The notes: generated by a model from the sequence alone, not told the origin. A stretch of 64,000 nucleotides of DNA from an uncultured Planctomycetia bacterium (GCA_964642015.1 CAZXLF010000001.1:254375-318374); one strand, 5' to 3'. Positions 20,620 to 46,513 are shown, counted from the first letter of the stretch. A program made the numbers and translations.

Positions 20620-21377
20620 GCCCAGATGGCAGAGTGAATATCTGTGGGGTCCAGATCGACAACTTGACGATGCGCGGGTCTTTGGAACGCATCGGCGATC
20701 TGGTGCGTCAGAGAAAGCCGTCATATGTGATCACGCCGAATGCTGATCACATTGTAAAAGTCCAGAATGACGCTCTGTTCAAGAAGATCTATGCGGAGGC
20801 GTCGCTTGTGCTAGCTGACGGCATGCCCTTGATCTGGGCTTCCTATTTTCTTGGGACCCCTCTTAAGGAAAAAGTTTCCGGGTCTGATCTTGTTCCTGAG
20901 CTTTGCCGGGAAGCCGCAAAAAAAGGATACCGCCTTTTTTTTCTCGGAGGCCGTCCGGGAGCGGCGGACCGGGCCAAAGAGTTTCTGGAAAAAGAGTTCC
21001 CTAAGATCAACATCGTGGGAACGGATTGCCCGCCGCTTGGTTTTGAAAAGGATGCCGCTGAAATGCGCAGGATCTCTGAAAAGATCAAGCGGTCCGCACC
21101 GGATATTTTACTGGTGGGCCTCGGAGCTCCTAAACAGGAAAAATGGATCTATGATTCCCACAATGATGTGCAGGTTCCTGTCAGCGTCGGCGTCGGCGTT
21201 ACATTCGAATTTATCGCAAAGATAGTCAAGCGCGCGCCGAAGTGGATGCAAAAAGCCGGATTGGAATGGTCCTGGCGGCTTGTCATGGAACCCAAAAGGT
21301 TGTGGCGAAGATATCTTTTAGACGACCCTGTCTTTTTTGTTCTCGTATTGAAACAAAAGTTCTCAAAGAAAAAATAA
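20616..21377 (+). CDS. WecB/TagA/CpsF-family glycosyltransferase (GT26), copy 1
   Basis: 'NICGVQIDNLTMRGSLERI...VITPNADHIV...LADGMPLIWAS...FFLGGRPG' matches WecG/TagA N-acetylmannosaminyl-transferase blocks. Paralog at 53203-54087. Confidence 0.8.
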   Translation: MSPDGRVNICGVQIDNLTMRGSLERIGDLVRQRKPSYVITPNADHIVKVQNDALFKKIYAEASLVLADGMPLIWASYFLGTPLKEKVSGSDLVPELCREAAKKGYRLFFLGGRPGAADRAKEFLEKEFPKINIVGTDCPPLGFEKDAAEMRRISEKIKRSAPDILLVGLGAPKQEKWIYDSHNDVQVPVSVGVGVTFEFIAKIVKRAPKWMQKAGLEWSWRLVMEPKRLWRRYLLDDPVFFVLVLKQKFSKKK

Positions 21378-21382
21378 ATCCC

Positions 21383-26578: not shown

Positions 26579-28141
26579 TTGAAAAAACAGATCTTATTGA
26601 ATATCTTGAGTAATTACGCCGGCCGCGCGGTCGGCATGGTCTTGGGATTTTTTCTCGTGCCTTTCCTCATTTACAAGCTGGGCGTGGAAGTGTTCGGTCT
26701 GGTGATCGTGTTTGAATCCATGATGAAATTCATGGAAGCGGTCAGTACGAGCGTGCGCGTGGCTTTGTCGAGGTACGCGACTTATTCGTTGTCTCAAGAA
26801 AGGGAAGGCGATTTTGTGTCCTATCTTTCCACGGGACGCGGGCTCTTTCTGATGATTTCCGTGCTGATATTCGCGGTAGGTTTTATGTTAAGTTTTTGGA
26901 TCCCGGGCATCTTCCGCATCCCCGAAGGGCGCTACCATGAATGCCAGCAGTATTTTGCTCTGATCACGGCGGCGTTCGCGGTGACGGTGCCGAATATAGT
27001 TTTCTGGGCCGGCTTATACGCGAAACAGCGTTTCGATCTGATCAATCTGGCGAGCTCCACGGGCATGACGCTGAGGGCGATAGCGATATTCGTGATCTTT
27101 TCGATCGTGCCCAAGCAGTATGTGTCGCTCGTTACTTACGGCTGGATCTATCTGATTATGACCTGGTCGCAGAATTATGCGGTTTACTTCGCGTTCAAGA
27201 AACTGATGCCTCACATCAAGGTGAGTCTCAAATATTTTCAGATGCATAAAGTAAAAGAGATATTGTCTTTCAGCGTCTACACTTTGTCGGGACACATGAG
27301 TTCGATCATCAACGAAAATGCGACGAATTTCATCATCAATTTTTTCTGGGGCCCGGCCGCGAACGCCGTTTACGGCATCGGCACCAAATTTTCTTCTCTG
27401 ATCGAGAATATCGTGCTTGAGCCGACGTGGACGCTGACACCCACATTCACGGACCTTGTGGCGAAAGGGGAGCATCAGAAATTAAAGACGCTGATCTTTG
27501 TGTTCACGAAGGCGATGACGATCCTTTGCTTTCCGGCGTTTTTGGCGCTGATGATATTCGCTAAGCCCATCCTGACCCAGTGGGTCGGCGGGAGGTTCAA
27601 TGACGCGCCATGGATCATGGTTTTAAGCATTCTTCCGCAATGTTTTTACATCCCGATCGCATCAACACATAACCTTCCGAATGCCTACGGCCATGTCAAA
27701 GTGCCCGGTATCGTGAACCCGATCTATGACCTTTTATCGGTGCTGACTTGCTATATTTTTGCGGTGCCTTTGAAGTTCGGTCTTATTGGTATGGCGATGG
27801 GCTCGTGTGTGTGTGCGATCTCGATGGCGTTCCTGTTCGCTGTGCCTTACGGATGCTATTTGGCCGGTTTTTCGGCGACTGAATACTGGCTCCGCGCTTA
27901 CTTCAAACCGGTGGCTTGGGCTGCTGTTCTTTGGATGCCGACGCTTTTATTTCTCGTTAAATGGAAACCTTTTTTATGGATGAGTGTTTCCGGTATGGCT
28001 GTCTTGTCCGGGGTCTCCATTGTCTATATCGTAGGGGTCTACTTTATGGTCTTGAACACCAAAGACAAGGGTTATGTTGACCAATTTTTAAAGGTTATAA
28101 AAACAAAAACCGGCTTTTCCAAGCCTTTGATCGCCGGCTAA
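26579..28141 (+). CDS. Wzx-like polysaccharide flippase, copy 2
   Basis: 'LLNILSNYAGRAVGMVLGFFLVPFLIYKLG' is collinear with 8590-10164, including 'YAKQRFDLIN' and 'EPTWTLTPTFTDL' blocks. TTG start. Confidence 0.75.
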   Translation: MKKQILLNILSNYAGRAVGMVLGFFLVPFLIYKLGVEVFGLVIVFESMMKFMEAVSTSVRVALSRYATYSLSQEREGDFVSYLSTGRGLFLMISVLIFAVGFMLSFWIPGIFRIPEGRYHECQQYFALITAAFAVTVPNIVFWAGLYAKQRFDLINLASSTGMTLRAIAIFVIFSIVPKQYVSLVTYGWIYLIMTWSQNYAVYFAFKKLMPHIKVSLKYFQMHKVKEILSFSVYTLSGHMSSIINENATNFIINFFWGPAANAVYGIGTKFSSLIENIVLEPTWTLTPTFTDLVAKGEHQKLKTLIFVFTKAMTILCFPAFLALMIFAKPILTQWVGGRFNDAPWIMVLSILPQCFYIPIASTHNLPNAYGHVKVPGIVNPIYDLLSVLTCYIFAVPLKFGLIGMAMGSCVCAISMAFLFAVPYGCYLAGFSATEYWLRAYFKPVAWAAVLWMPTLLFLVKWKPFLWMSVSGMAVLSGVSIVYIVGVYFMVLNTKDKGYVDQFLKVIKTKTGFSKPLIAG

Positions 28142-31737: not shown

Positions 31738-33402
31738 ATGAGCCAACAACTGATGAACCAGATGAACGGTGCGAACAACACGACTCCCATTACACCCGTG
31801 ATCGCTGAGCGTCCGATCAAGACGACCCGTGATTACGTGAAGGTGGTTTTTCGTCAAAAAAGATTCATTATCCTGACCGTCATCGTCGTCACATTGATGA
31901 CTTATTTCGGGCTTAAATTTTTTACACCGGTATATGAATCGGAAGTAAAGATGCTTGTCTCAGCCGAAAAGGAAACTGACGCGCCGTACCAGCGTGATTT
32001 TTCTATCTATAGCGGCAATGACTCCGGTCAGACGCTCACTCAAAGCGAGATCGTGACCTCCAAGCCCGTGCTTGAGCGCGCGGTGCTGGCTTTGGGTTTG
32101 AACGAGCGCCCTCTTGATTATGAAAATCACTTCGCGTCGCCTTTGAAGCAAAAATTTGTGAATTGGCAGAACAAGCAAACCGGTGCTCGGCTTGAAACCA
32201 TGGCGCTCCAGCAGAAAGAAGGGCTCAAATTCTACATGGCGATGGAAGACTTGAAAAGTCGCGTGAAAGTGACACCGGTCCGCGACACGCACTTATTTTC
32301 GATCGTCGTGACGGATTTCAGCCCGATCGCCGCGGCGGTGACGGCCAATGCGGTGAGCCGCTCTTACGTGATGTTCGATCTGGAGCAGCAGTATGTCGAT
32401 CTTCAAGCCAAGTATACTGAAAAAAATCCCGTTGTTATCCAGATGAAGGAAAATATCGCGAATATCAGAAAAGGGCTTTCCGGCCAGCCTCTGCCAAGTA
32501 TTGAGGCGATAGGCCCGGCCTCGGTCAAGATCATCGAACAGGCGACGCCGGCTTTAAAACCCGTTGGCCTTCCGCGAAAATTGATTCTTCTGATCGGCTT
32601 CGTGATGAGTATTTTTCTCGGCGCATTTTTGGCATTCAGCTTTGAGTATCTCGACCAAACATTTCACTCCAAGCAGGACCTTGAGGTATTTTTGGGCGCT
32701 CCGGTGATCGCCTGCATCAATAAGAAAAAAGGGTTGGGCGACCGCCAGCTGGTCCATGATGTGTCCGATACCAACAAATCGCCTCGCGCGGTGTCCTATC
32801 GTATCTTGGCCCAGCAGATCCTTTTCATGGTGAAGACGAAGAATCTAAAGCACATGCTTTTTGCATCCGTGAATCCCGCAGATGATTCGGCGACTATTCT
32901 TTCGAATTCAGCTGTTTTTATATCCAGTCGTTTGGGACTGCGCACTCTTGTGATCGATGCGAACTTAAGAAATCCTTCGCTTCATAAATTTTTCAAAGGC
33001 AAGGTCAATCAGGGTCTTGCGGAGATCTTGGAGGGAAGCCTTAAGTCTGAAGAAGCGGTCCGGCCAGTGAATGAAAAGCTTCATTATATTTCCGCCGGCC
33101 ATAGCGTCGCGGATCCCGGCATTCTACTAGGCAAGGAATCTTTTTCTCGTATCCTATTGACCTTAAGCCCATCTTATGACCTGCTTCTGATTAACGGCGC
33201 GAATGTACGTGATTTCCGCGACACACCGCTTATTGCTTCATCCACGGATGGTGTTATCCTGATCATCGGCGAAAGCACCGTACGCCGTCAGGTCGTTCAG
33301 TATTCGATGAAGCACCTGAATGACAACCACTGCCGTATCCTCGGCGCGGTCATGCCCAATCGGGAATACATGATCCCGAAATTCCTCTACGAAAGCGTTT
33401 GA
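31738..33402 (+). CDS. Wzc/GumC-like polysaccharide co-polymerase with a degenerate (probably inactive) BY-kinase-like C-terminal domain
   Basis: N-terminal Wzz-type domain with a TM helix and long periplasmic segment. The C-terminal ~230 aa are collinear with CpsD/Wzc ATPase domains but Walker A is 'SVNPADDSAT' (no GK[ST]), Walker A' is 'VIDANLRNP' (D to N), Walker B is 'LLINGAN' (no Asp), and there is no terminal Tyr cluster. Confidence 0.75.
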   Translation: MSQQLMNQMNGANNTTPITPVIAERPIKTTRDYVKVVFRQKRFIILTVIVVTLMTYFGLKFFTPVYESEVKMLVSAEKETDAPYQRDFSIYSGNDSGQTLTQSEIVTSKPVLERAVLALGLNERPLDYENHFASPLKQKFVNWQNKQTGARLETMALQQKEGLKFYMAMEDLKSRVKVTPVRDTHLFSIVVTDFSPIAAAVTANAVSRSYVMFDLEQQYVDLQAKYTEKNPVVIQMKENIANIRKGLSGQPLPSIEAIGPASVKIIEQATPALKPVGLPRKLILLIGFVMSIFLGAFLAFSFEYLDQTFHSKQDLEVFLGAPVIACINKKKGLGDRQLVHDVSDTNKSPRAVSYRILAQQILFMVKTKNLKHMLFASVNPADDSATILSNSAVFISSRLGLRTLVIDANLRNPSLHKFFKGKVNQGLAEILEGSLKSEEAVRPVNEKLHYISAGHSVADPGILLGKESFSRILLTLSPSYDLLLINGANVRDFRDTPLIASSTDGVILIIGESTVRRQVVQYSMKHLNDNHCRILGAVMPNREYMIPKFLYESV

Positions 33403-33474
33403 TCGCCGTTTGTTATCCCAATCAAGCCTGCTTATTTAAAGAGAGATCTTTAAAAAATTAATCAAGAAAACAAA

Positions 33475-33504
33475 GGGCTAGGCCGAATTTCTTCGACCTA
33501 GCCC
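33475..33504. terminator. bidirectional rho-independent terminator between convergent genes
   Basis: Hairpin 'gggctaggccgaa-tttc-ttcgacctagccc' (8+4 bp stem) between the + strand gene ending at 33402 and the - strand gene ending at 33532, followed by a T-rich tract. Confidence 0.5.
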
Positions 33505-33531
33505 AAGCGTTCTATTTGTTGATCGCCAATA

Positions 33532-33828
33532 TTACTTAAGCACTTTGTGCAATTCAGCCAGAGATTTATCAATATATTGGATTGCTAAATCTCGGTTAGT
33601 GCCACCAAAATTAGAAGAAGTATTCGATAATTCATGTCTGGCTCTTTCCAGAGAAGAGATTGCAATATACCATGCATCTTCTCGCTCTTTATTGGGGTCT
33701 TTATGAGCTGGCTTGCTGGAAACTGCTGCTGGTTTAGTAGGTGTGTTTGTGTCAGCAAAAACATGAATTGATTGGAAGCCAAATAAAATAACAAATATTG
33801 CGCACAACATTAATCTACGACTCTTCAT
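33532..33828 (-). CDS. small secreted hypothetical protein
   Basis: N-terminal signal peptide 'MKSRRLMLCAIFVILFGFQSIHVFA'. No recognisable domain. Confidence 0.45.
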   Translation of the reverse strand: MKSRRLMLCAIFVILFGFQSIHVFADTNTPTKPAAVSSKPAHKDPNKEREDAWYIAISSLERARHELSNTSSNFGGTNRDLAIQYIDKSLAELHKVLK

Positions 33829-34189
33829 TTATTCCCCCTTATTTAACGTTAATCACCTTAAATGTTCTTTCTTTTACCTAAAGATTTATTATACCTCATT
33901 TGAGAAAAATATCGATCTTTTACTGAAGAAAATTATTTAATTTTTCTCAAAATAATCCTAGTGCAACCTAGTTAGAACCATATTTTGCACGAACTTTAAG
34001 CTTCCATAAACCAAAGGGGTTAAGATCTATATTGCAAGACCATCTGCGTACACCATGAAGTATTATTTCCACTTCATACAAGTTCCCTTTTGGGGTTAAA
34101 ACTATAGCTTTAAGCTCTTTTATTGGAGTTGGATTAGAAAGCCGAGTCCTTAGGAGATTACAAGTGAGTGTTATTGATCGGAATAACAG

Positions 34190-36031
34190 CTATTCTGTGT
34201 AATGATAGCCAGCGTCGGGATGAATGTTGACGTCATCCGGAGTGCCGTCTTTTCGGGCGCTGCCGTCGATAGGAACCGGCTTACCGATGGCTTTCTTGAC
34301 CCAATCGGGGAGCGTCGAGTACCAGGATGTCGTTCCCAGATCGATGGCAGGGGAGTCGGGAGACAGATGAGCATCGTAATCGGCGCTTTTGTCATTTGAA
34401 AGAAGCGCATTGGCAGCGACAGAATGTTTGTCCTGGCCTGAGATAGACTGCCATTCAGAAAGACCGATCGATTTATCATGTACTTTGAATAATTTCGTTA
34501 TTTCCGAAGACTTGCTCCAGACGTTATAATCGGAATCCATACGCAGATAATTGTCAGCGCCAATGCTTCCTATTGCGGCTCCCGCATTGGCGTTTTGATT
34601 GAATATGCAATTTTTTATTGTTAGTTTCCCATCAGAAGAAAAATGGTAGACACCAAAGGTCCGGTAGGCATCTTTAATACCTTGCCCAATGTTAAAAGTA
34701 TCGTTGTAAAGATAAACTTTCCCCATTTTATCAGTATTATCGTTGATGCTGATCGTGATTGCATCGCCTTTGTTGCTATAAGAAAGAGTATTGATCACAT
34801 ACAGCTCATCCGGAGTCCTGATGGACGAGTGTTCCGAAGACAGGGAAATTCCTGATGTAATGCTCGAGTTGTTTCTGGTGCCCGCGCCGTGCGTTTTGCA
34901 GGAGTAAATCAGGATATGGTCGGCACCGTCGCTGTAAAAACCGGCATCAAAATTGCCTTTAGCATTCCATTCCTGTGCATTAGTATCCGCTTCGCAGCGT
35001 ATGGCACCCGAATACTGGACCTTAGTATTGGCGTTATAATCCAAAAAATCAAAACCGGCGCGTCCGCCGTATTGCGCGAAACAATCGATCCACCAGGAAT
35101 AAGAGGACTCCATTGTGAAATTCTGCCCGTGCCCGTTGCCTCCGGAGTTACTAAAACGTCCTGTACACCGCACACAGGAATTGTAATCCGCCCCGTTTTC
35201 AGGAGGATTTATTCCGTTTCGGACAAAATAAAAAGATTCTTTACCGTTGTACTCGGCCCAGCAATCGATGAACTGAACATGCTGGCTTTGTGAGCGGAAA
35301 GCTTCGCCGTTCGACCATCTTACATGAAGGTTTTTTGCGACGACCCACGGCGCACTGCCTGTTTTATCGCCGATCTTGATCAGTGCATCGTATTGTTCTT
35401 TGGGATATTGCCCCAACCGTATTGTGTGAGCCGATGGATCAGAGCCATCCAGCAGTTTTAAAAAGACAAGATGACTACTCCATGAAAGCATATAAGCTGA
35501 TGCTACATCAGATGCGGTGGTTACTCCTCCAAATCCATCCAATTGATGCTTAAGATAAGCCACTTCATTGTCATCTACTGAAAGTAGATATAAAAAGTCG
35601 CCCAAATATTTGGCATTTGTTTGATAAGTGTGTCCGCTAGAATCATTAGGATAAACGGTCCAGCCGCCTTTGTAGATCTCGCTCCCTATAAAAAGGGGAT
35701 CGTTATCGTGATATTTAAGTTTCCCAAAAACTACTTTACTTTGGGGTTCGCCATAAGCGTCCAAAACAATAGGGTTATTTTCAGCTCCCGAGGAGTTAAG
35801 CGTCCAATACGCGTCTTTACCGACCCAGGTGTCTCCGCGTTTGAATGACACTTCGTCGCCCGGTTTTAGAAAATTGTGCCCTGTGACGGCTGAGGGAGTT
35901 TTGAAAGCATAGGCGGGATCGGTACCGTTATTGGAATTATTACCATCGGAATTACTGATGTAATAATGAGTAGCCCATGCTTTGGTAGTTAGCAAAAGAA
36001 ATAAAAGTATAAAGTAAGAAGTTTTCTTCAT
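34190..36031 (-). CDS. secreted right-handed parallel beta-helix protein (pectate-lyase-fold; candidate polysaccharide lyase/depolymerase or adhesin)
   Basis: Signal peptide 'MKKTSYFILLFLLLTTKAWA'. Repeated Asn/Gly-rich beta-helix rungs such as 'IKNCIFNQNANAGAAIGSIG' and 'VRCTGRFSNSGGNGHGQNF'. Confidence 0.55.
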   Translation of the reverse strand: MKKTSYFILLFLLLTTKAWATHYYISNSDGNNSNNGTDPAYAFKTPSAVTGHNFLKPGDEVSFKRGDTWVGKDAYWTLNSSGAENNPIVLDAYGEPQSKVVFGKLKYHDNDPLFIGSEIYKGGWTVYPNDSSGHTYQTNAKYLGDFLYLLSVDDNEVAYLKHQLDGFGGVTTASDVASAYMLSWSSHLVFLKLLDGSDPSAHTIRLGQYPKEQYDALIKIGDKTGSAPWVVAKNLHVRWSNGEAFRSQSQHVQFIDCWAEYNGKESFYFVRNGINPPENGADYNSCVRCTGRFSNSGGNGHGQNFTMESSYSWWIDCFAQYGGRAGFDFLDYNANTKVQYSGAIRCEADTNAQEWNAKGNFDAGFYSDGADHILIYSCKTHGAGTRNNSSITSGISLSSEHSSIRTPDELYVINTLSYSNKGDAITISINDNTDKMGKVYLYNDTFNIGQGIKDAYRTFGVYHFSSDGKLTIKNCIFNQNANAGAAIGSIGADNYLRMDSDYNVWSKSSEITKLFKVHDKSIGLSEWQSISGQDKHSVAANALLSNDKSADYDAHLSPDSPAIDLGTTSWYSTLPDWVKKAIGKPVPIDGSARKDGTPDDVNIHPDAGYHYTE

Positions 36032-36156
36032 GGGTTTATTCTAGCATATTGTCGGCCAACTCCCCCAACCCCTCTTTAAGTAGAGAGGGGAGAATTTTAG
36101 ACTAGCTGTTTCCCCCTCTTCATTTGAAGAGGGGGAAAGGGGGAGTTCAGATTGAC

Positions 36157-38679
36157 TCACGCCAGCGCTTGAAGCTTATCCCACGGGAACTGTTTCATGA
36201 CGTCCCAAAGCTGGAGTCCACCGAAATAGGGTGCATAGGCGTCTTCTCCTTTGCCGTACTGCGTTGGGTCCTCAGCAGTGAAGACGACCGAGCTTGCCTG
36301 GTCGCGCACGATCATGCCATAGTCCCGGATCGCGATCACCATCATTTTGACGATGGGGGACCAGTTGGGATCGATCGTGATATTAGCGGGGAAGCGGAAG
36401 CGGGTCCCTTCGGGGATCGCATTGGGGCCTGTGTACCAGCCGTCGCTTCGCTGGGCAGGCCACACATAATTGGTCCAGGTCGCGGGACGTACGATCGCGA
36501 CGGCGAGTTCATGCGGGATCACACCGGCCTGAACTTCTTTAAGAAGCATTGTGCCTCCGATCGTCGGAAGCCCTGTGGCGGTGGCGCCCCATTGCTCATC
36601 ACCTCCGAGAGTATTTTTCACAGTGGGCATGATGCCGCTTGAAGTGCTTGCGTTATCAATGATCCCTCCCCAGCTTGCCTGCCACTGGCCGTTCACTTTC
36701 TTGAACTGCCAGAACTCATACAGTTTATCGGCACTCTTATCATAAATAGTGATCTCGCCATCGAGACCCCCTGATGCGGCCACGTTCGCGGGGATCGGGA
36801 TGCCTTGCTGACAGACCTGGTAAAGCGCGGTCCAGGTCAGCGTCTGTCCGTTTTGGACGATCGAGACAGGAGCTTTTGTGGCGCTTGAGTCCACGATATA
36901 GTACGGTGTGCTGTACTGTGTGATATTGATCCACGGACCGGCAAGCTGAGTATTCGCGACGAATTCATTCACATAATTCGCTGAGTTGGCATTCAGCGCT
37001 TGATTTGCGGACAAGGGCTGATTCCAGAATGAAGTTGGACTGAAAAGCTCCCCTGTTGGCGGAGGCGGGGGAGGCGGCTGCGTCGGCAATGTTGTGAGTG
37101 AATTTAGGAAACTTGCTAAATCAAAGTTCGAAGCGCCGGTTATGACAAAAAGAACGTTGCGATCGTTGGCCGAGGGGGATCCCGATGTTGGTAATTGTGT
37201 GAAATAGCGTGTGTTGAAAACGGAGCATTTGTCCGAATCTGCCAAAAGCGCGTTGTATAGATCCGTGACTTTTTGCAACTTTGTTAAAAAGGTTGTCTGA
37301 TTAAAAGCCGGATCACTCACAACACTTAGGATTTCAGCACGGTCGGTAGAGTTTGGGTAACCTGTTGTGAGTAGAGAAGTTTTATAAATTAGATTAAAGT
37401 TTGATAGGTTGGCGATATTAGCTTGCATAAAATGATAAAAACCAGACGCTTTTAATATGGAAGTCAAAAAATTTGCTTGGGTATAAGCAGGGTCACTAAC
37501 AACGAGCAATAGAGGAGAATAATCGGAAGCGCCCCCAAAAATGTTGTTATAGTACCAAGTGTAGGATGTGTTGCTTTTTATTGCTTTATAAAGATCCGCA
37601 GCTTTCTGGAGTATGGCCAGAAAGCTTGTTTGATTAAAATTAGAGGTGCCTGCAACATTTAAGAGTGTAGCCCTGTCTGTAACGCTCGGATAACCCGTTG
37701 TTGGAAGAGAAGTTTTATAAATCAGATTAAAATTAGATAAATTAACAGAGTTGGACTGCATATATCTATACAAATTTGAAGCGAGTTGCACCGTCTTTAT
37801 GAATGTCGTTTGATTATAAGAGGGATCGCTAGCGGCATTTACCAAAGGGGAATAGTCGGAAGTACTCCCGAAGACATTTCCGTAATACCAGAGATAACCC
37901 CCTGTCTTCATTGTATTGTACGTGTCCGCAGCTTTCTGGAGTATGGCCAGAAAGCTTGTTTGATTAAAATTAGAGGTGCCTGCAACATTTAAGAGTGTAG
38001 CCCTGTCTGTAACGCTCGGATAACCCGTTGTTGGAAGAGAAGTTTTATAAATCAGATTAAAATTAGATAAATTAACAGAGTTGGACTGCATATATCTATA
38101 CAAATTTGAAGCGAGTTGCACCGTCTTTATGAATGTCGTTTGATTATAAGAGGGATCGCTAGCGGCATTTACCAAAGGGGAATAGTCGGAAGTACTCCCG
38201 AAGACATTTCCGTAATACCAGAGATAACCCCCTGTCTTCATTGTATTGTACGTGTCCGCAGCTTTCTGGAGCGACGACAGGAATTTAACCTGATTAAAGC
38301 TAGAAGGGCTTGTAACGTTTAACAGGACCGAACTGTCAGATGCCGTGGGAGCTCCGGAAGTTGTGAGAACAGTCTTATAGATAAGATTGAAATTTGAAAG
38401 TTCTCCGGAATTTGATTGTAATTCACTAAGAAGAAGATTTGCCGCCGTTTGGTTCAAAAGTTGCGCAGGCGTCAGAGGCGCTGTTGACGGAATGGTAATG
38501 ATTGTATTTTTGGAATCGATCAAGTTTTGGCTGGTCTGAGCTGCCTGTTGAGTTTGGGCCGGAGTAAATCCGCTGGGCGTTGTGGTCTGAGTCGTCGGAT
38601 CAGCCGCAAGTAAGACTTTGCCGTCGGTTAAAAAAAAGCTTAAAAGAACTAGGTAAAAAAACACCGCTCTATTTTTCAT
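36157..38679 (-). CDS. secreted tandem-repeat protein: signal peptide, ~7 half-repeats of ~55 aa, poly-proline linker, unassigned ~350-aa C-terminal domain
   Basis: Signal peptide 'MKNRAVFFYLVLLSFFLTDGKVLLA'. Alternating repeats 'SNFNLIYKTSLPTTGYP...FNQTSFL..LQKAAD.Y' and 'YLWYYGNVFGSTSDYSPLVNAASDPSYNQTTFIKTVQLASNLYRYMQSN', then 'PTQPPPPPPPTG', then a C-terminal domain with no motif I recognise. Confidence 0.65.
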   Translation of the reverse strand: MKNRAVFFYLVLLSFFLTDGKVLLAADPTTQTTTPSGFTPAQTQQAAQTSQNLIDSKNTIITIPSTAPLTPAQLLNQTAANLLLSELQSNSGELSNFNLIYKTVLTTSGAPTASDSSVLLNVTSPSSFNQVKFLSSLQKAADTYNTMKTGGYLWYYGNVFGSTSDYSPLVNAASDPSYNQTTFIKTVQLASNLYRYMQSNSVNLSNFNLIYKTSLPTTGYPSVTDRATLLNVAGTSNFNQTSFLAILQKAADTYNTMKTGGYLWYYGNVFGSTSDYSPLVNAASDPSYNQTTFIKTVQLASNLYRYMQSNSVNLSNFNLIYKTSLPTTGYPSVTDRATLLNVAGTSNFNQTSFLAILQKAADLYKAIKSNTSYTWYYNNIFGGASDYSPLLLVVSDPAYTQANFLTSILKASGFYHFMQANIANLSNFNLIYKTSLLTTGYPNSTDRAEILSVVSDPAFNQTTFLTKLQKVTDLYNALLADSDKCSVFNTRYFTQLPTSGSPSANDRNVLFVITGASNFDLASFLNSLTTLPTQPPPPPPPTGELFSPTSFWNQPLSANQALNANSANYVNEFVANTQLAGPWINITQYSTPYYIVDSSATKAPVSIVQNGQTLTWTALYQVCQQGIPIPANVAASGGLDGEITIYDKSADKLYEFWQFKKVNGQWQASWGGIIDNASTSSGIMPTVKNTLGGDEQWGATATGLPTIGGTMLLKEVQAGVIPHELAVAIVRPATWTNYVWPAQRSDGWYTGPNAIPEGTRFRFPANITIDPNWSPIVKMMVIAIRDYGMIVRDQASSVVFTAEDPTQYGKGEDAYAPYFGGLQLWDVMKQFPWDKLQALA
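37597..38272. repeat. perfect direct tandem repeat, 330-bp unit, about 2.05 copies (within CDS 36157-38679)
   Basis: Read by eye, 37597-37926 is identical to 37927-38256, and the first 16 nt of a third copy follow. Older, diverged copies of the same unit extend on both sides (~37200-38400). Confidence 0.85.
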
Positions 38680-38925
38680 TACAAAACCCCCTTGCCCAAA
38701 CTCGCAGTAATCACCTTAGATATTTTTGAATCCTTTTTAAATTAAAATTTGATTAATAAATCTTACAAAACGATCATTAAAATTTGATGAAAATAAGATT
38801 AATTTTTCTTAATGGCCTATTTTATACCATATTCCGCTATGAATTAGCGAATGTTTTCTCTTATAATATTTAAGATCCAAATGAGAGAAAAAAATATTTT
38901 TTTGGAAGATCCGAGTCAAAACTGA

Positions 38926-38992
38926 AAAATCAAAAGTCAAAACCGCAACTTAAAACGCAAAATGTTTTTGTTTGTTTTGACTTTTGATCTTT
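38926..38992. repeat. inverted repeat in the divergent intergenic region
   Basis: 'atcaaaagtcaaaac' (38929-38943) is the reverse complement of 'gttttgacttttgat' (38974-38988), a 15-bp stem with a ~30-nt spacer. The repeated 'gtcaaaac' motif also occurs at 38915. Confidence 0.4.
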
Positions 38993-39135
38993 AACTTTTG
39001 AGTTTTTAGTCACCGTATTATAGTTGTATATACAAAAGTATTATGCTACAATGACCCCTTTCGATTTAATCCCAAACCGGGTTTTCGTAGGGCTATCTGA
39101 TCAGAGAAGTGTTAAAAAACAAAAAGGACCATGAG

Positions 39136-39351
39136 ATGGAAGATAAATTGAAAAAGGAGGCGTTCTTGACAGTCGACCTTAAAGAAGTAGACAGCATCGC
39201 TCAGGACATCGTCTCAAGAAAAAAGGATGCTGTCTTGAACATCCGCATGAATAGCAGGGATCTGCGCAGTATCAAGCAAAAGGCGAGGAAGATGGGCGTT
39301 AAGTATCAGACGTTCATCTCTGAGCTTCTGCATCGCATCGCGCATAGCTGA
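39136..39351 (+). CDS. BrnA/CopG-like ribbon-helix-helix small protein (orphan antitoxin-like)
   Basis: C-terminus 'NIRMNSRDLRSIKQKARKMGVKYQTFISELLHRIA' resembles the BrnA antitoxin family. No BrnT/DUF497-like partner ORF is visible nearby. Start ambiguous among 39109, 39136 and TTG 39162. Confidence 0.45.
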   Translation: MEDKLKKEAFLTVDLKEVDSIAQDIVSRKKDAVLNIRMNSRDLRSIKQKARKMGVKYQTFISELLHRIAHS

Positions 39352-39356
39352 TCTTT

Positions 39357-39884
39357 ATGGAAAAGATCAAGCGCTCATTCCACTGCTTCCTATATTACGG
39401 TTTTGCTAGGCATTTACCTATCTCGTATTTGCCGGGTGGCAAGATTGCTAAAGCGATCCGCGCTTTTATCTGTAGGCGTCTTTTCAAAAAATGCGGTAAG
39501 GACGTGAATGTCGAAGCTAAGGCCTTTTTTAACACCGGTCGCGAGATAGAGCTTGGAGATCATTCGGACATAGGGGTCAATGCCAAGGTATTTGGTCCGG
39601 TCGTGATCGGGAAGGATGTGATGATGGGGCCTGATGTGGTGTTCGTTGGCGGAGCACACGAATTTGGCCGTATTGACATTCCGATGAGGAAACAAGGATT
39701 TAAAACACCTATGCCAACGATTGTATCGGATGATGTTTGGATTGGAACGAGGGCGTTGATTTTGGCAGGGGTCAAGATCGGCCGCGGGGCGATCATCGGG
39801 GCCGGCGCAGTTGTTACCAAAGATATTCCCGATTGGGCGGTTGTTGTGGGAAATCCAGCTCAAGTCATTCGGTTAAGAAAATGA
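39357..39884 (+). CDS. hexapeptide-repeat (LbH) sugar O-acetyltransferase
   Basis: 'VWIGTRALILAGVKIGRGAIIGAGAVVTKDIPDWAVVVGNPAQVIR'. Confidence 0.8.
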   Translation: MEKIKRSFHCFLYYGFARHLPISYLPGGKIAKAIRAFICRRLFKKCGKDVNVEAKAFFNTGREIELGDHSDIGVNAKVFGPVVIGKDVMMGPDVVFVGGAHEFGRIDIPMRKQGFKTPMPTIVSDDVWIGTRALILAGVKIGRGAIIGAGAVVTKDIPDWAVVVGNPAQVIRLRK

Positions 39885-40405
39885 ACCCTAATTTTCAATC
39901 AACCACTTTATGGTTCACCGGTAGACCGTGTTCGGGAAAAAGCACGATAGCAGCTCACCTTGTCAAAGAAATGGAAAAGAGGCAAATTCGTATTGCAAGA
40001 CTTGACGGTGATGATGTACGCGGTCGATTAAATTCGGATTTGGGTTTTACTGACAAAGATCGGCGTGAAAATTTACGCAGAATAGCGCACGTGGCACAGC
40101 TATTTAATGAGAACAATAATTTTGTGATCGCTACGTTTGTATCGCCCACCAATGATATGAGAGCGTTGGTTCGGAGAATCATAAAGAATTTCAAATTATG
40201 TTACATCCGCTGTGCTCCCGAAGTATGCGAAAGCCGGGACGTAAAAGGCATGTATAAAAAAGCCAGAGCGGGTCAGATCAAAGATTTTACCGGTATTTCG
40301 GCACCTTTCGAAGAACCGATCGGGCCTGAGATTATTGTAGACACTGATCACGCTGGTATAGATCAGTGTGTGAATCATATATTGAAAGAGATGGGGATCG
40401 GATAG
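39881..40405 (+). CDS. cysC: adenylyl-sulfate (APS) kinase
   Basis: 'LWFTGRPCSGKSTIA' P-loop in the exact APS-kinase context, and 'ARLDGDDVR' matching the LDGDN(V/I)R APS-binding motif. 174 aa. ATG at 39881 overlaps the upstream stop. Confidence 0.85.
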   Translation: MNPNFQSTTLWFTGRPCSGKSTIAAHLVKEMEKRQIRIARLDGDDVRGRLNSDLGFTDKDRRENLRRIAHVAQLFNENNNFVIATFVSPTNDMRALVRRIIKNFKLCYIRCAPEVCESRDVKGMYKKARAGQIKDFTGISAPFEEPIGPEIIVDTDHAGIDQCVNHILKEMGIG

Positions 40406-41178
40406 TGTCATTGACTGATATTGATAAAGCGATTTTACCTGAAATTATCAACATCGCCGAAGATGCGGGCCGATCGATCTTAAGGATCTATTCGCTTAGC
40501 GATTTTGGTATCGTGATGAAAATCAATGATTCTCCTTTAACTTTGGCAGATACAGCGGCGCATGAAGCGATCGTGAGATCCTTGAACCGGTTGACGCCGG
40601 ATTGGCCGGTGTTGTCGGAAGAATCGAAATCCGTTCCTTATAATATAAGGAAGGAGTGGAAAACTTTTTGGATGGTCGATCCTTTGGACGGAACGAAGGA
40701 ATTCATTAAAAGGAACGGAGAGTTTACCGTAAACATTGCATTGATCAAAGGCAATGTTCCCGTGATGGGGGTCGTGCATGCGCCGGTGAAGCAGCTGACT
40801 TATTTTGCAGAAGATCGCCAAGGCGCTTTTAAAAGTATCGCCGGCGCTAAAGCGGAACGGATACAAACGGATAAAAAGCCTAAAGGGGTTTTGAAAGTCG
40901 TCATTAGTCGTGATCATATCGGCGGCGAAATGGAAGCATTTCTAAAAACTCTCGAACATTATGAAGCGGTGCACGTGGGAAGTTCGTTGAAATTTTGTTT
41001 GGTGGCCGAAGGTCAGGCGCATCTTTATCCTCGTTTTTGGCCCTGCATGGAGTGGGACACCGCAGCGGCGGAGTGTGTGGTGCGCGAAGCTGGAGGTAGC
41101 GTGAAAGATCTTTCGGGAAATAACTTGAAATACAATAAACCTGATCTTCTAAACCCATATTTTATCGTCAAAGCATAA
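40366..41178 (+). CDS. cysQ: 3'(2'),5'-bisphosphate nucleotidase (inositol monophosphatase superfamily)
   Basis: 'WMVDPLDGTKEFI' metal-binding motif (DPxDGT) and 'GSSLKFCLVAEGQA'. Genomic pairing with APS kinase supports a CysQ role. GTG start at 40366 or 40405. Confidence 0.75.
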   Translation: MCESYIERDGDRIVSLTDIDKAILPEIINIAEDAGRSILRIYSLSDFGIVMKINDSPLTLADTAAHEAIVRSLNRLTPDWPVLSEESKSVPYNIRKEWKTFWMVDPLDGTKEFIKRNGEFTVNIALIKGNVPVMGVVHAPVKQLTYFAEDRQGAFKSIAGAKAERIQTDKKPKGVLKVVISRDHIGGEMEAFLKTLEHYEAVHVGSSLKFCLVAEGQAHLYPRFWPCMEWDTAAAECVVREAGGSVKDLSGNNLKYNKPDLLNPYFIVKA

Positions 41179-41193
41179 AAGAAAGGGAGCAAC

Positions 41194-41865
41194 ATGGAAG
41201 AAATTATGGAGCTGGATCTGAACAAGCCGGGAAGTATAGGGGAAAAGTCTTTCAATATTTTATGGGAAAAAATAAAAAGTTTAGCGGCAAAAAATATATT
41301 GGAATTCGGAAGCGGTGTAAGCTCGATCAGAATGGCTAGAGCTTTCCCGGAGACGAACATCGTCTCGATCGACCATGACCTTAAGTATTATAGGAAGACG
41401 CATACCTTGAAACGGAAATATTGTCCCGGTTCCAATTTGAACATCCTGTTTTCACCGCTTCGATATCAATGGTCGAGCGGAAGTCTGTTCTTGAGTTATG
41501 CCAAAAATAAATTTAGCGGGATCTTTGATTGTGTGATCATCGATGGCCCTCAAAGCTGGCTAACCCTTAGGGGCAGGGAAGTTTGTTTGTATAAGGTCTA
41601 CGAAAATTTAAGGATTGGTGCAGTGGTGGTACTGGACGATTATTCAAGAGAGGAAGAAAAGACCGTTCTCAAAAACTGGCTTTTGACCTATCCCGGCAGT
41701 TTTAGAGTGGACGTTGTCGAGGAAGGTCATCATCTGGTTTTTTTGACAAAGGTAAAGCAGGTAAAGCCGCGTTATTTTTGCTGGTCGAAGTTTATCGACA
41801 ACCTGCAGACAAATATACATTTGTTTTTAAGATCATTTAAAAGAAGGTTTATTCCAGCGCATTAA
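41194..41865 (+). CDS. putative class I SAM-dependent (O-)methyltransferase
   Basis: 'NILEFGSGVSSIRMA' glycine-rich motif I followed by 'VVLDDY' acidic motif. The assignment is weak. Confidence 0.4.
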   Translation: MEEIMELDLNKPGSIGEKSFNILWEKIKSLAAKNILEFGSGVSSIRMARAFPETNIVSIDHDLKYYRKTHTLKRKYCPGSNLNILFSPLRYQWSSGSLFLSYAKNKFSGIFDCVIIDGPQSWLTLRGREVCLYKVYENLRIGAVVVLDDYSREEEKTVLKNWLLTYPGSFRVDVVEEGHHLVFLTKVKQVKPRYFCWSKFIDNLQTNIHLFLRSFKRRFIPAH

Positions 41866-41871
41866 CAAACT

Positions 41872-44205
41872 ATGGATCTAAAACAAAAAACGATAAAAGG
41901 CTTGAGCTGGTCATTTGCCTCTCAAGCAGCCAGACAGGTCAGCCAATTTGCGGTGACCGTCATCCTGGCGCGCTTATTGATGCCCGACGATTTTGGACTG
42001 GTGGGAATGGCGACCGTTTTCACCGGATTCATTTCAGCGGTCAATGAGATCGGTGTAAGCGGAGCTCTAATCCAAAGGCAGCAAGTGGACGAAAGCCATT
42101 ATAGTTCGGTTTTTTGGCTGAACATTTTTCTGGGAACGGCATTTACAGCCTTATTCATTGCCGTGTCTCCGGCGATCGCGGCATTTTACAACAAACCCGA
42201 ACTCATCTCTATTTTAAGGATCAGCGCTTTTAATTTTATTTTGGCAGCATTTTCCATCGTGCAAAGAGCTATTTTCCAAAAACATATGGAATTTAAAAAG
42301 CTTGCCGTGATCGAAACTTTGGCGATCGTTATAGGGGGTGTCGTCGGAATCGTCATGGCTTACCGCGGATTTGGTGCATGGAGTTTGGTCTACCAAATGA
42401 TCGCATTCACGCTGGCCAATACGGTTTTGTTGTGGCTGTTTTCCCACTGGAGACCACGGTTTATTTTTTCCATCTCTTCGATCAAAGATATATTCGGTTT
42501 CAGCGCGCATGTGACGGGATTTACTGTCATGAATTACTTCGCCAGGAACGTGGATTATCTTTTGATTGGTAAATTTTTGGGCGCAGAATCGCTAGGTTAT
42601 TACACCTTGGCCTATAAACTAATGCTCTATCCTTTGCAGAACGTTACTTGGACCATACAAAAAGTAATGTTTCCGGCGTTTTCAGTTATCCAAAATGACA
42701 TCGCGAAGGTCAAGAACGCCTATTTAAAGATGATAAAAAGCATATCGATCACAGTGTTTCCGATGATGTTCGGTCTTTTTGCGCTGGCGCCTGAATTGAT
42801 CGACGCCGTTTACGGAGCCAAATGGCTGCCTTCGGTGATCGTTATCAGGATTTTTTGTTTTTGCGGAATGATCCAGTGCCTTTCGAGTACGGCGGGCACT
42901 ATTTATCAATCTCAAGGCCGTTCGGATATCCAATTTAAGATAGGTTTTCTCGGATCTTTGGGGGCTGTTTTATCTATTATTTTAGGACTTCGCTGGGGCA
43001 TTGAAGGAGTAGCGGCCTGTTATACTGCCTATTCCATTCTGTGGGGATTTTATTCACTGTACATCGTAGAAAGATTGATCAGTTTAAAGAAAAAAGATTT
43101 TTATTTATTATTCGCCAAGATATTCCTGATCTCATCGGGCATGTTCCTTTTTACGTTGTATCTCAAGAGTATTTTAAGAATTCATGGCTGGCCGGAATTA
43201 ATGATTGTCATGACAGCGGCAGCCACTGTTTATGTTTTTTTGTTGCTTGTTTTTAAACAAATCGGTTATCAAAATATGGATCATGTTTTGAATGGTAAGA
43301 AACAAAATACCAAAGTTGCGCCCAATTTCTTTTGTGTAGGCACAAAGAAAGGTGGCACGACGACTTTGCAGGATATTTTAGTACAGCACCCAGATATTTA
43401 TTTGCCCAAGGTAAAAGAGACAAAATTTTTTGCAATCGAAGAAAAATACTCCAAAGGAATTGAGTATTACAAAAAAGAGTATTTCTCAAGATGTAATGGT
43501 CAAAAAGCGGTAGGAGAAATTGATCCCGCTTATATGTTCGTCCCTTATGCCCCTTCAAGGATCCACAAAGCTTTAGGAGATGAGATAAAGATTATTTTCC
43601 TTCTGCGAAATCCGGTTGACCGAGCTTATTCTCATTATCTGATGAATTACCGTTGGGGTATCGAGAGTAGATTATTCGAAGAAGCGATAGAAGCTCCCGA
43701 GATCGTGCCAAGCGAAGGATTGTCGTTGGACGATTTTTCAAACAAATATAATTTCTGTTATAGGGAAACTGGTTATTATGCAAAACAGATATCCGCCTAT
43801 TTAAAGTTCCTCAAAAGATCCAATATGATCTTTTTTGTTTTTGAAGAGGATATTAAATCAAATATCCGATCGACTATTGAGTCTATAGAGAAGTTTCTTG
43901 GGATCAGGCACGTTGAATTGAACTTTAATAAAATAAGCAACCCTGCAAGTATGCCTAGATTTAGGATCATCAGGGATTTTACGAGAAAAACAAATATCGT
44001 AAGAAAAATAGGCAAACACTTTTTCCCATCTCAATCCTTACGATATAGGATCCTTATGAGAATAGATGAAATGAATCAAGTTGAAATCAAGCCAAAACCT
44101 TTGGATAGTTCATTCAAAAAATATCTACTAGACAAATATTACAAAGAAGAGGTCAAGGCATTGGAAGTCATTTTGAACAGAAATTTAAGCGTTTGGATGG
44201 AATAA
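41872..44205 (+). CDS. fusion protein: Wzx/MOP-type polysaccharide flippase (aa ~1-460) and PAPS-dependent sulfotransferase domain (aa ~470-777)
   Basis: N-terminus has ~12 hydrophobic helices with a Wzx-like start 'LSWSFASQAARQVSQFAVTVILARLL'. The C-terminal domain has the sulfotransferase 5'-PSB loop 'FCVGTKKGGTTTL' and 3'-PB motif 'LLRNPVDRAYSHY'. Confidence 0.75.
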   Translation: MDLKQKTIKGLSWSFASQAARQVSQFAVTVILARLLMPDDFGLVGMATVFTGFISAVNEIGVSGALIQRQQVDESHYSSVFWLNIFLGTAFTALFIAVSPAIAAFYNKPELISILRISAFNFILAAFSIVQRAIFQKHMEFKKLAVIETLAIVIGGVVGIVMAYRGFGAWSLVYQMIAFTLANTVLLWLFSHWRPRFIFSISSIKDIFGFSAHVTGFTVMNYFARNVDYLLIGKFLGAESLGYYTLAYKLMLYPLQNVTWTIQKVMFPAFSVIQNDIAKVKNAYLKMIKSISITVFPMMFGLFALAPELIDAVYGAKWLPSVIVIRIFCFCGMIQCLSSTAGTIYQSQGRSDIQFKIGFLGSLGAVLSIILGLRWGIEGVAACYTAYSILWGFYSLYIVERLISLKKKDFYLLFAKIFLISSGMFLFTLYLKSILRIHGWPELMIVMTAAATVYVFLLLVFKQIGYQNMDHVLNGKKQNTKVAPNFFCVGTKKGGTTTLQDILVQHPDIYLPKVKETKFFAIEEKYSKGIEYYKKEYFSRCNGQKAVGEIDPAYMFVPYAPSRIHKALGDEIKIIFLLRNPVDRAYSHYLMNYRWGIESRLFEEAIEAPEIVPSEGLSLDDFSNKYNFCYRETGYYAKQISAYLKFLKRSNMIFFVFEEDIKSNIRSTIESIEKFLGIRHVELNFNKISNPASMPRFRIIRDFTRKTNIVRKIGKHFFPSQSLRYRILMRIDEMNQVEIKPKPLDSSFKKYLLDKYYKEEVKALEVILNRNLSVWME

Positions 44206-45377: not shown

Positions 45378-46513
45378 GTCAACATAAAATACTTCATGTC
45401 ATTAAGACATTAAATCTTGGTGGAGCAGAGACAAATCTCTTAAATCTTCTTAGGGAAAGCAAAGACTCAGAAGATTATTATTTGGCTTATTCTTATGGCG
45501 GAAAATTTGAAGAAGAATTTCGGAATCTTGGGATAAGTTTTTATAAATATGCCGGCTGCGAACATAAGGTTAAAAGTTTCGCATCTTTGGCCATTATTCT
45601 TAAATTGGCGCTATTTATCAGACGAAATAAGATTCAGATCGTGCATACTCATAATTACAACAGCCATGTTTGGGGAGCGTTGGCCGGGAAGCTTGCCGGA
45701 GCAAAGGTCGTCGAGCATGTCCACGATTTTCGTTATGAAAAAGCCGATTATCTAAAGGAAAGGGGATTGAATCCGAAACAGTTCAAGACGGCTGTTTTTT
45801 TCAGCAGATTTTCGGACCGCATCCTTGTGCTGACCAAGAATAATCAAAGATACTTGATCGAGAACGGAGTCCCCGCTGAAAAGATCGTTCTTATACCGAA
45901 CGGTGTCCCGCTTGGCTTTGATTTGAACGGCGGCCGTCCAGGTCTTTTGGACTCTTTATCGATCCCAAGCGGCAAAAAGATCTTATTATCAGCGGCAAGG
46001 ATATCCGTTGAAAAAAATATAGGATTTCTTTTGGATATTGCCTCACAGTTGAAGCGCGAAGATATTCTTTTTTTGATCGCGGGAGATGGGTCTCTTAAAA
46101 AAGAGCTGGAAGAGCGCACTATAAAAGAGGGCCTTGAAGAAAAGGTAAAATTCATCGGTTTTTATCCTGATGTCAAAAGATTGCTCGGAGTTTCAACTTT
46201 ATTTCTTCAGCCCACTTTACTTGAACTTCATTCGATCACGATGCTTGAGGCGATGAGCATGGGCGTGCCGGCGCTTGTCTCCAAAGGTGTCGGTTGTAAT
46301 GATGATTTTATCGAAAACGGTAAGAACGGGTTTCTGCTTGATCCTTGCGATGCCAAAGCATGGGCGAAAATAGTAGGGACTCTGCTGGATGACGAGAAGC
46401 TCTCCGCTAAAGTGGCCGGTGAAGGGCAGAGACTGATTGAGAACCAATACGATATTGAAAAGACAGTCAAAGCGATTGAGGGGATTTATAGGGAACTTGT
46501 GAGGGAAGAATAG
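45374..46513 (+). CDS. glycosyltransferase family 4 (paralog of 17173-18321)
   Basis: 'ILHVIKTLNLGGAETNLLNLL' and 'LELHSITMLEAMSMGVPALVSKGVGCNDD' are collinear with the 17173 gene. Confidence 0.8.
   Translation: MSQHKILHVIKTLNLGGAETNLLNLLRESKDSEDYYLAYSYGGKFEEEFRNLGISFYKYAGCEHKVKSFASLAIILKLALFIRRNKIQIVHTHNYNSHVWGALAGKLAGAKVVEHVHDFRYEKADYLKERGLNPKQFKTAVFFSRFSDRILVLTKNNQRYLIENGVPAEKIVLIPNGVPLGFDLNGGRPGLLDSLSIPSGKKILLSAARISVEKNIGFLLDIASQLKREDILFLIAGDGSLKKELEERTIKEGLEEKVKFIGFYPDVKRLLGVSTLFLQPTLLELHSITMLEAMSMGVPALVSKGVGCNDDFIENGKNGFLLDPCDAKAWAKIVGTLLDDEKLSAKVAGEGQRLIENQYDIEKTVKAIEGIYRELVREE

Follow-up and report, generated by a model that had tools for sequence, protein, structure and literature searches.

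We examined a 64,000-nucleotide stretch of DNA from an uncultured Planctomycetia bacterium (GCA_964642015.1 CAZXLF010000001.1:254375-318374), referred to here as the window. The window contains about 50 co-directional genes on the plus strand, extending from 0.3 to ~59 kb, and within this run lie three genes on the minus strand that encode proteins of 98, 613 and 840 amino acids (Table 1). These are the only genuine minus-strand genes in the window; other long minus-strand open reading frames (ORFs) were rejected as shadows that overlap plus-strand genes with strong Pfam matches. An initial annotation, made from the sequence alone, had described three minus-strand genes inside the plus-strand run and had considered all three products to be secreted. 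The positions of the ORFs bear out the first statement, and the signal-peptide-like N-termini that can be read directly from all three sequences bear out the second.

The plus-strand genes that were sampled encode functions in glycan biosynthesis, including a methyltransferase, a DegT aminotransferase-oxidoreductase, a pyruvyl transferase, AsnB and a UDP-GlcNAc 2-epimerase, as well as Bac_transf, GT4, Poly_export and Wzz proteins. The three exported proteins are thus encoded inside a locus for biosynthesis and export of an exopolysaccharide (EPS), at a point between Poly_export and Wzz genes on one side and genes for a hexapeptide acyltransferase, an adenosine 5'-phosphosulfate (APS) kinase and a flippase-sulfotransferase on the other.

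Table 1. Features of the minus-strand gene group and its borders. Positions are counted from the first nucleotide of the window.
Feature	Position	Strand	Remarks
Intrinsic-terminator-like hairpin	33475..33504	-	13 bp, 8 G-C pairs, then TTTGTTTT on the minus strand
98-aa orphan secreted protein	33532..33828	-	signal peptide (MKSRRLMLCAIFVILFGFQSIHVFA, followed by D); helical-looking C-terminal half
Leader/promoter segment of the 98-aa gene	33850..33950	-	resembles the segment upstream of the 840-aa gene
613-aa secreted right-handed beta-helix-type protein, candidate glycan depolymerase	34190..36031	-	profile homology
Nested hairpins separating the 840-aa and 613-aa genes (125-bp spacer)	36058..36147	-	free energy (dG) -53.8 kcal/mol, z -6.3
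840-aa secreted modular protein	36157..38679	-	signal peptide, repeats, poly-proline linker, 299-aa C-terminal domain
C-terminal 299-aa domain (aa 542-840)	36160..37056	-	large uncharacterised family
PPPPPPP linker (aa 535-541)	37057..37077	-	seven prolines
Repeat region (aa 94-534)	37078..38400	-	eight ~55-aa units, two alternating types
Perfect 330-bp (110-aa) tandem duplication in the repeat region	37595..38271		2.05 copies, 100% identity
AT-rich divergent control region	38680..39108		429 bp, G+C content 0.289; leader segment 38708-38812 and inverted repeat
Small ribbon-helix-helix (RHH)-like protein	39109..39351	+	80 aa, head of the downstream glycan block; called as 71 aa in contig L001

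The C-terminal domain of the 840-residue protein

The largest of the three proteins had been described as a secreted repeat protein. The signal peptide and the repeats are present, and a ~70-residue T/Q-rich stretch separates them; however, the description understates the protein, which also carries an enzyme-like C-terminal domain of 299 residues. When the whole protein was searched against Pfam, NCBIfam, PHROG and PDB sequences, the only match was phrog_17388, a family of minor tail proteins, and it falls within this domain (hidden Markov model (HMM) E 2.4e-9, residues 546-802).

The 299-residue domain represents a large family. A profile built from seven sequences identified at least 931 clusters, all annotated as 'hypothetical', and no Pfam match to the domain was found in 65 members. 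The named genomes that encode it belong to Omnitrophota, 'Planctomycetia' metagenome-assembled genomes (MAGs), Methylotenera, Thermoleophilaceae, Solirubrobacterales and Chitinophagales. AlphaFold modelled the domain from a 65-sequence alignment with high confidence (predicted local distance difference test (pLDDT) 97.2, predicted template modelling (pTM) score 0.93). A Foldseek search of the PDB with this model gave nothing at E <= 0.001 (best E 1.4, template modelling (TM) score about 0.1), and the 65-sequence HMM matched no PDB sequence at E <= 1. One match obtained with a shallower profile (A1), to PDB entry 6g6o ('Ika8', E 0.0025), was spurious and disappeared when a deeper profile (A2) was used.

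Relatives of the domain are found in the tails of phages. Among predicted viral structures (BFVD), the model matched the minor tail protein gp9 of Gordonia phage Guillaume (E 1.7e-18, TM 0.74), three proteins of uncultured phages and a 760-residue protein named 'Parallel beta-helix repeat'; these matches have TM scores of 0.73-0.74 and E-values of 1e-18 to 1e-19. A tblastn search identified the domain in 48 Gordonia phages, where the protein is mostly annotated as a minor tail protein. In Gordonia phage BlingBling, the protein with the domain (gp30) is encoded by the last gene of the tail module. On an IMG/VR contig (L012), the domain forms the N-terminal part of a 1224-residue protein, and tail and tail-fibre genes lie on either side.

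The L012 tail protein (5797-9471) has a signal-peptide-like start, followed by the 299-residue-type domain and then by four He_PIG Ig-like domains. It was considered as a fusion of the domain with a beta-helix, and this was rejected: the rest of the protein is related neither to the family of the 613-residue protein nor to PF13229. The only hint of such a fusion is the UniProt name of the 760-residue BFVD match.

Thirteen residues are invariant in the cellular and phage members alike (W11, P51, P89, D99, I180, P200, A201, D205, P215, G217, Y246, G247 and D252, in domain numbering), and H182 is nearly so. Three further residues (E114, R203 and E216) exceed 90% conservation among the 65 cellular members. 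The presence of invariant acidic residues in a domain that is either secreted or part of a virion tail suggests a putative role in catalysis on an envelope polymer. The phage proteins of phrog_17388, such as Guillaume gp9 and BlingBling gp30, share the domain at 22-30% identity and have the same invariant Asp residues. They differ in that the phage domain is embedded in virion proteins of 750-1200 residues, whereas the 840-residue protein is cellular and secreted and carries it as a C-terminal head, behind a different array of repeats at the N-terminus.

The repeat region

The repeats of the 840-residue protein are of type A (LSNFNLIYKT...) and type B (YLWYYGNVFG...). The closest full-length homologue, at 44% identity, is a protein from a groundwater MAG of Candidatus Omnitrophota (P0004), whose residues 107-520 consist of seven exact 60-residue repeats of the same type. 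The ~55-60-residue repeat has the consensus FNLLYGT..SG.P..DR..L....S.Y.Q..FL.....A..LY..LQ.N. Between 2 and 8 copies precede the C-terminal domain, in an Omnitrophota/Planctomycetes-Verrucomicrobia-Chlamydiae (PVC) subgroup only. A profile of the repeat matched no PDB sequence and no Pfam family.

Two Logan contigs from sister runs (L001 and L002) are 100% identical to the window apart from one 330-bp unit and thus represent the same strain. L001 lacks exactly one unit of the tandem duplication and encodes a protein of 730 residues, and L002 ends at position 37624, inside the duplication. The number of 330-bp units is therefore polymorphic, or else it reflects an assembly error.

The 613-residue protein

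A word-indexed search with the 613-residue protein identified a single homologue (P0002, 29% identity). An exhaustive HMMER search identified 1889 relatives at E <= 1e-3 and 38 at E <= 1e-30, many of the 1889 sharing only the N-terminal ~100 residues. The threshold of the Pfam family PF13229 (Beta_helix) is passed by five of ten proteins that share this N-terminus, and four of 58 family members match PF13229 weakly. We compared a profile of these 58 members (A4) with a profile of 12 N-terminus-sharing proteins (A9), two of which (P0198 and P0217) pass the gathering score of PF13229. The two profiles align with an hhalign probability of 100 and an E-value of 8.8e-50 over 475 columns, covering query residues 5-555.

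The A4 profile also matches chains of GH136 lacto-N-biosidase (E 5e-18 to 4e-13) over the N-terminal 90-160 residues. This match is significant only at profile positions 17-180, and a later collinear segment has an i-Evalue of 13. A match to the P22 tailspike is weak (E 0.008). From the alignment to PF13229-carrying proteins and the N-terminal GH136 matches, the assignment of the protein to the right-handed beta-helix type, which had been made in the initial annotation, appears well supported, if by indirect evidence. A few members of the family carry RGI_lyase, CBM5/12, Laminin_G_3 or FN3 modules. Within the family, G326 and E400 are invariant, and Q303, T306, D328, N351, D362, Y366, D368 and G369 are nearly invariant.

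Several relatives are encoded next to phage tail genes. The gene for P0002 lies directly 3' of a gene whose product has an Mtd_N/hyaluronidase-type tail-fibre N-terminus. The gene for P0130, which is 33% identical over its full length, is the second one after a tail-fibre gene and lies on a contig of 45.9 kb that IMG/VR lists as viral, and a further relative is found on another IMG/VR contig (L029). Because of the homology to PF13229 and GH136 and the position of these relatives beside tail-fibre genes, a depolymerase-type function is a reasonable inference for the 613-residue protein. The phage contexts are those of the relatives alone; the gene in the window encodes a signal peptide, is flanked by EPS genes and has no structural match in PHROG.

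Two known groups of proteins offer a comparison. GH136 LnbX is a retaining glycosidase with a right-handed beta-helix and a tailspike-like structure (PMC8106489). The likeness to LnbX (PDB 5GQC, 7V6M and other entries) lies in the N-terminal part of the family profile; however, only the N-terminal cap and the first coils align, the catalytic region does not, no LnbY-like partner was recognised, and the substrate is certainly different. The tailspike and tail-fibre depolymerases of phages (P22, HK620, receptor-binding proteins of Klebsiella phages) share the beta-helix architecture and are linked to the family through the nearest relatives, P0002 and P0130, but the N-terminus of the 613-residue protein is a Sec signal peptide where the phage proteins have a virion-attachment region, and there are no phage genes around it.

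Genomic contexts of homologues of the 840-residue protein

We examined three contigs that encode homologues of the 840-residue protein. In L003, the gene is beside small genes of the DUF5666 type and a ZnuA transporter, near a cluster for molybdopterin synthesis, and a sulfotransferase and an APS kinase are encoded ~5-6 kb away. L007 (5350-11530) contains two tandem paralogues of the family (657 and 509 residues) beside an OmpR-type two-component pair and type II secretion genes. In L008 (10001-13662), the gene is beside a two-component pair, a BNR/Sortilin protein, GH130 and GT4. Genes of this family thus lie directly beside an OmpR-type histidine kinase and response regulator pair in two unrelated contigs, L007 and L008.

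The 98-residue protein and the RHH-like ORF

The smallest of the three minus-strand proteins has no match in Pfam, NCBIfam, PHROG or PDB sequences and forms a singleton cluster. It was considered as a conserved partner of the beta-helix protein, and this was rejected: the small ORFs that follow the genes for P0130 and P0002 show no similarity to it.

On the other side of the divergent region, a small plus-strand ORF ends 5 bp upstream of the gene for the hexapeptide acyltransferase. It had been called an orphan BrnA-like RHH gene. A small RHH-like ORF is indeed present, and no BrnT-type toxin was found beside it, the 429-bp spacer upstream holding only ORFs of at most 49 residues. However, the C-terminal matches that relate it to BrnA/CopG-type antitoxins are below the curated cut-offs, with 24.8 bits for CopG_antitoxin PF12441 (cut-off 28) and 17.9 for BrnA NF047399 (cut-off 60). 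The ORF further differs from such antitoxins in heading a glycan operon. A small RHH regulator is therefore more plausible than an antitoxin, and a regulator of the downstream glycan block is the more economical reading.

Intergenic structures and leaders

The three minus-strand genes are set apart by spacers of 361 bp and 125 bp, while the plus-strand genes are closely packed. With their own spacers, a promoter-like site and hairpins, they look like two or three separate transcription units, with a minus-strand terminator at the end, facing the 3' terminus of the Wzz gene (31738-33402). Last in the upstream block are the export genes for a Wza-like protein (Poly_export) and Wzz (polysaccharide co-polymerase), followed by the terminator-like hairpin, which sits between the convergent Wzz and 98-residue genes. 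The initial annotation took this hairpin for a bidirectional terminator. It is G+C-rich and folds with a free energy of -27.8 (z -6.6) on the minus strand and -21.2 on the plus strand; however, the T-run is found on the minus strand only, and the plus strand is without a U-tract.

The leader of the 98-residue gene contains a promoter-like site with 10 of 12 matches (33915-33888) and a 12-nucleotide perfect inverted repeat (33899-33910 and 33940-33951). A segment of ~105 nucleotides is common to the 5' regions of the 98-residue and 840-residue genes. Its local alignment has a score of 40, compared with 22.7 +/- 2.7 for shuffled sequences, and none of 300 shuffles scored as high. This shared leader hints that the two genes may be regulated in common. 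The two segments end in TAAGGTGATTA, located ~20-30 nucleotides upstream of each start codon, and this 11-mer is found nowhere else in the window.

The nested hairpins in the 125-bp spacer, a pair of unusual stability with runs of C and G and no clear U-tract, include a 14-bp perfect stem (36109-36138), and they are probably a terminator or an attenuator. The divergent region upstream of the 840-residue gene, at 429 bp, agrees with the ~430 bp given previously. The inverted repeat reported there also exists, although not as a 15-bp repeat: its arms (38916-38943 and 38974-39001) are 28 nucleotides long and 89% complementary. Structures within the region have z-scores of -3.8 and -4.7. A search of Rfam over positions 33300-39400 gave only chance matches of miRNA models on the hairpins.

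The surrounding glycan genes

Downstream of the AT-rich region, the RHH-like ORF is followed by the hexapeptide acyltransferase (the two together at 39109-39884), the APS kinase, CysQ and the flippase-sulfotransferase fusion. Positions 39737-44205 contain the genes for the APS kinase, a CysQ-type 3'-phosphoadenosine phosphatase (Inositol_P) and a 777-residue flippase fused to Sulfotransfer_1. This gene set provides the ingredients for a sulfated exopolysaccharide, and the EPS is probably sulfated. Sulfated exopolysaccharides are unusual in bacteria outside the cyanobacteria, where synechan may be compared (PMC8205485).

Three Wzx-type flippases (8590-10164, 26579-28141 and 41872-44205) and two Wzy-type polymerases (18239-19723 and 46513-47850) are encoded in the window. 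What had been regarded as one 59-kb locus is probably two or three adjacent glycan clusters. A 749-residue BNR/Sortilin-Vps10 beta-propeller protein is encoded inside the plus-strand glycan block (21242-23491). A 37% identical homologue is found in L008 (13843-16134), 2.4 kb from the gene for a member of the family of the 840-residue protein (P0011) and beside GH130 and GT4.

Base composition and the origin of the minus-strand genes

The initial annotation described the minus-strand stretch as markedly more AT-rich than its surroundings and took it for a later insertion. The two large genes do not agree with this description, as their G+C contents are 0.453 (613 residues) and 0.467 (840 residues) compared with a window mean of 0.458. 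The whole island has a value of 0.434, and the drop is due only to the spacers (0.29-0.39) and the 98-residue gene, which has a G+C content of 0.374 and a third-position value (GC3) of 0.283. The remark that the non-coding flanks are AT-rich is correct for the spacers; it does not extend to the coding regions of either large gene, which are at the window mean. The 840-residue gene is a compositional mosaic: the repeat region has a G+C content of 0.407, and the C-terminal domain, with 0.561 and a GC3 of 0.647, is among the most GC-rich coding sequence of the window. The lowest-GC block of the window is elsewhere, in a plus-strand stretch at 41.2-49.9 kb that encodes the flippase-sulfotransferase, GT4 proteins and a Wzy-like protein in genes of 0.37-0.42, and its composition is more atypical than that of the island.

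A later insertion into the unidirectional locus, as a horizontally acquired island or a phage-derived remnant, concerns the origin of the three genes and is compatible with any reading of their function. The opposite orientation, the long AT-rich spacers, the low GC3 of the 98-residue gene and the phage relatives of both large proteins speak for it, and so does codon usage, for which the 98-residue gene (-1.225) and the 840-residue gene (-1.182) have the lowest fit in the window, compared with -0.97 to -1.14 for the plus-strand genes. However, the low fit of the 840-residue gene is accounted for by its N/S/T/Y-rich repeats, and the GC3 values of the two large genes (0.46 and 0.50) are intermediate between the upstream and the downstream flank. 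Since G+C content and codon usage of the large genes are inside the range of the flanks, the argument from AT-richness fails. In addition, there is no tRNA in the 64-kb window, no integrase or transposase among its ORFs, no other phage gene, and no direct repeat flanking the island apart from the shared leader motifs. A relative from a JGI metagenome (L024) encodes Wza and Wzz proteins that are 58% and 63% identical, and its plus-strand genes start 2 bp after Wzz, which also speaks for an insertion. It was nevertheless rejected as a clean empty site, as its whole downstream gene set differs, and no close relative of the flanking Wzz gene was found in GTDB representatives. Composition does not support a later insertion, which we consider unlikely. 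The orientation of the island and its supposed AT-richness and insertion are, in our view, ordinary.

Possible functions

We propose that the three genes, placed where operons of a locus for a probably sulfated EPS adjoin, encode accessory secreted, phage-tail-related, glycan-active proteins, and that these proteins act on extracellular polysaccharide. We put the probability of this proposal at about 0.45. The genes would form a 5.7-kb module at the junction of two co-directional blocks for glycan biosynthesis and would give rise to three separately transcribed, Sec-exported proteins, two of which are most likely extracellular glycan-cleaving enzymes. The 613-residue protein would be a right-handed beta-helix of the type found in the tailspike depolymerases of phages and in GH136 enzymes. 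In the 840-residue protein, the N-terminal ~55-60-residue repeats may bind the cell surface or the polymer, and the poly-proline linker would tether them to the 299-residue domain with its invariant Asp and nearly invariant His residues. The proteins would then trim, release or disperse the extracellular (probably sulfated) polysaccharide produced by the surrounding genes, analogous to AlgL, PslG, PelA and BcsZ. While the structure of the genes, the secretion signals, the homologies and the phage-tail setting of the relatives are shown, the enzymatic activity and its substrate are inferred, and the position of the genes makes the cell's own EPS a plausible target.

Glycoside hydrolases are commonly encoded in EPS clusters, where they control the release, chain length or clearance of the polymer (PMC9075953, PMC8829089, PMC4928890). 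The proteins described here resemble the glycanases of such loci (AlgL PL5, PslG GH39, PelA GH166, BcsZ GH8 and PgaB) in being exported and encoded inside an EPS locus. They differ in having no Pfam, NCBIfam or PDB sequence match to PL5, GH39, GH166 or GH8, and their genes are on the opposite strand, look monocistronic and number two. That they act on the polymer of their own cell would be by analogy with these enzymes.

Several observations weigh against this proposal. No catalytic residue of either protein could be mapped to a characterised enzyme. For the 299-residue domain, the word enzyme rests on conserved polar residues and the phage-tail context, and the domain has no characterised relative. 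The 613-residue protein has no direct match in Pfam (E <= 0.01), NCBIfam, PHROG or PDB sequences, and its AlphaFold model, made from a two-sequence alignment, is unreliable (pLDDT 40.8), although it is all-beta with short periodic strands; a Foldseek search with this model gave nothing significant, was discarded and is given no weight. The homologues of the 840-residue protein in L003, L007 and L008 sit outside EPS loci. A conserved pairing of beta-helix and 840-type genes was rejected, as the neighbour in L007 is a paralogue of the 840-residue family and the neighbours in L003 are unrelated. Finally, L024, the one distant relative of the locus that was found, is without the three genes after Wzz, although its downstream genes are not orthologous to those of the window.

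The main rival is that the enzymes attack foreign glycans, whether environmental polysaccharides that serve as food or the envelope or capsule of another cell (host or prey), and that the EPS locus is no more than a permissive operon junction. The relatives of both proteins are phage tail proteins, which breach the envelope of another cell, and the location of the other homologues outside EPS loci fits such a role as well. Moreover, the closest named homologues are from Omnitrophota MAGs, and this phylum has been characterised as ultra-small, with traits of host dependence or predation (PMC10066038; bioRxiv 10.1101/2023.11.21.568195). However, the Omnitrophota/PVC affiliation of the organism rests on the taxonomy of homologues only, there are no adjacent genes for predation or adhesion, and the three genes lie exactly between export and modification genes, a position in which self-acting glycanases are often encoded. 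We regard an attack on foreign glycans as possible, but not as a likely explanation. It is also conceivable that the two large proteins are not catalytic. One would then be an adhesin with a beta-helix and the other a repeat protein whose head is lectin-like, and both would bind the EPS and give the matrix its organisation. Adhesins and matrix proteins often contain beta-helices and tandem repeats, the copy number of the repeats is unstable, as is often the case in surface proteins, and no catalytic motif ties either protein to a characterised family. Such a role is difficult to reconcile with acidic and His residues that do not vary even among very distant members, the phage copies among them, with the link of the beta-helix family to GH136 and tailspikes, and with the lyase or CBM modules fused to some of its members, and we consider it improbable.

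Significance

Glycan-active proteins encoded at the junction of an EPS locus, as we propose for the 613-residue and 840-residue proteins, would be a variant of a known theme, and the 299-residue domain is the component most worth following. It is possible, if doubtful, that this domain defines a new fold and a new family of enzymes that cleave polysaccharides and have an Asp/Asp/Asp(+His) centre, common to secreted proteins of Omnitrophota/PVC, Actinobacteria and other bacteria and to actinophage minor tail proteins; here, a new module of 60-residue repeats would direct it to a sulfated exopolysaccharide, and it would work together with a beta-helix depolymerase of the tailspike type.

If the two large proteins are glycanases, the locus would naturally combine a pathway for a probably sulfated EPS with the enzymes that degrade this EPS, in an uncultured lineage of which little is known. 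Enzymes that degrade their cognate EPS are useful for structure determination and for biofilm dispersal. The family of the 299-residue domain comprises at least 931 clusters with no Pfam model and no solved structure, and a function for it would annotate many proteins at once. As the domain is present in dozens of cultured Gordonia phages, its activity is directly testable there.

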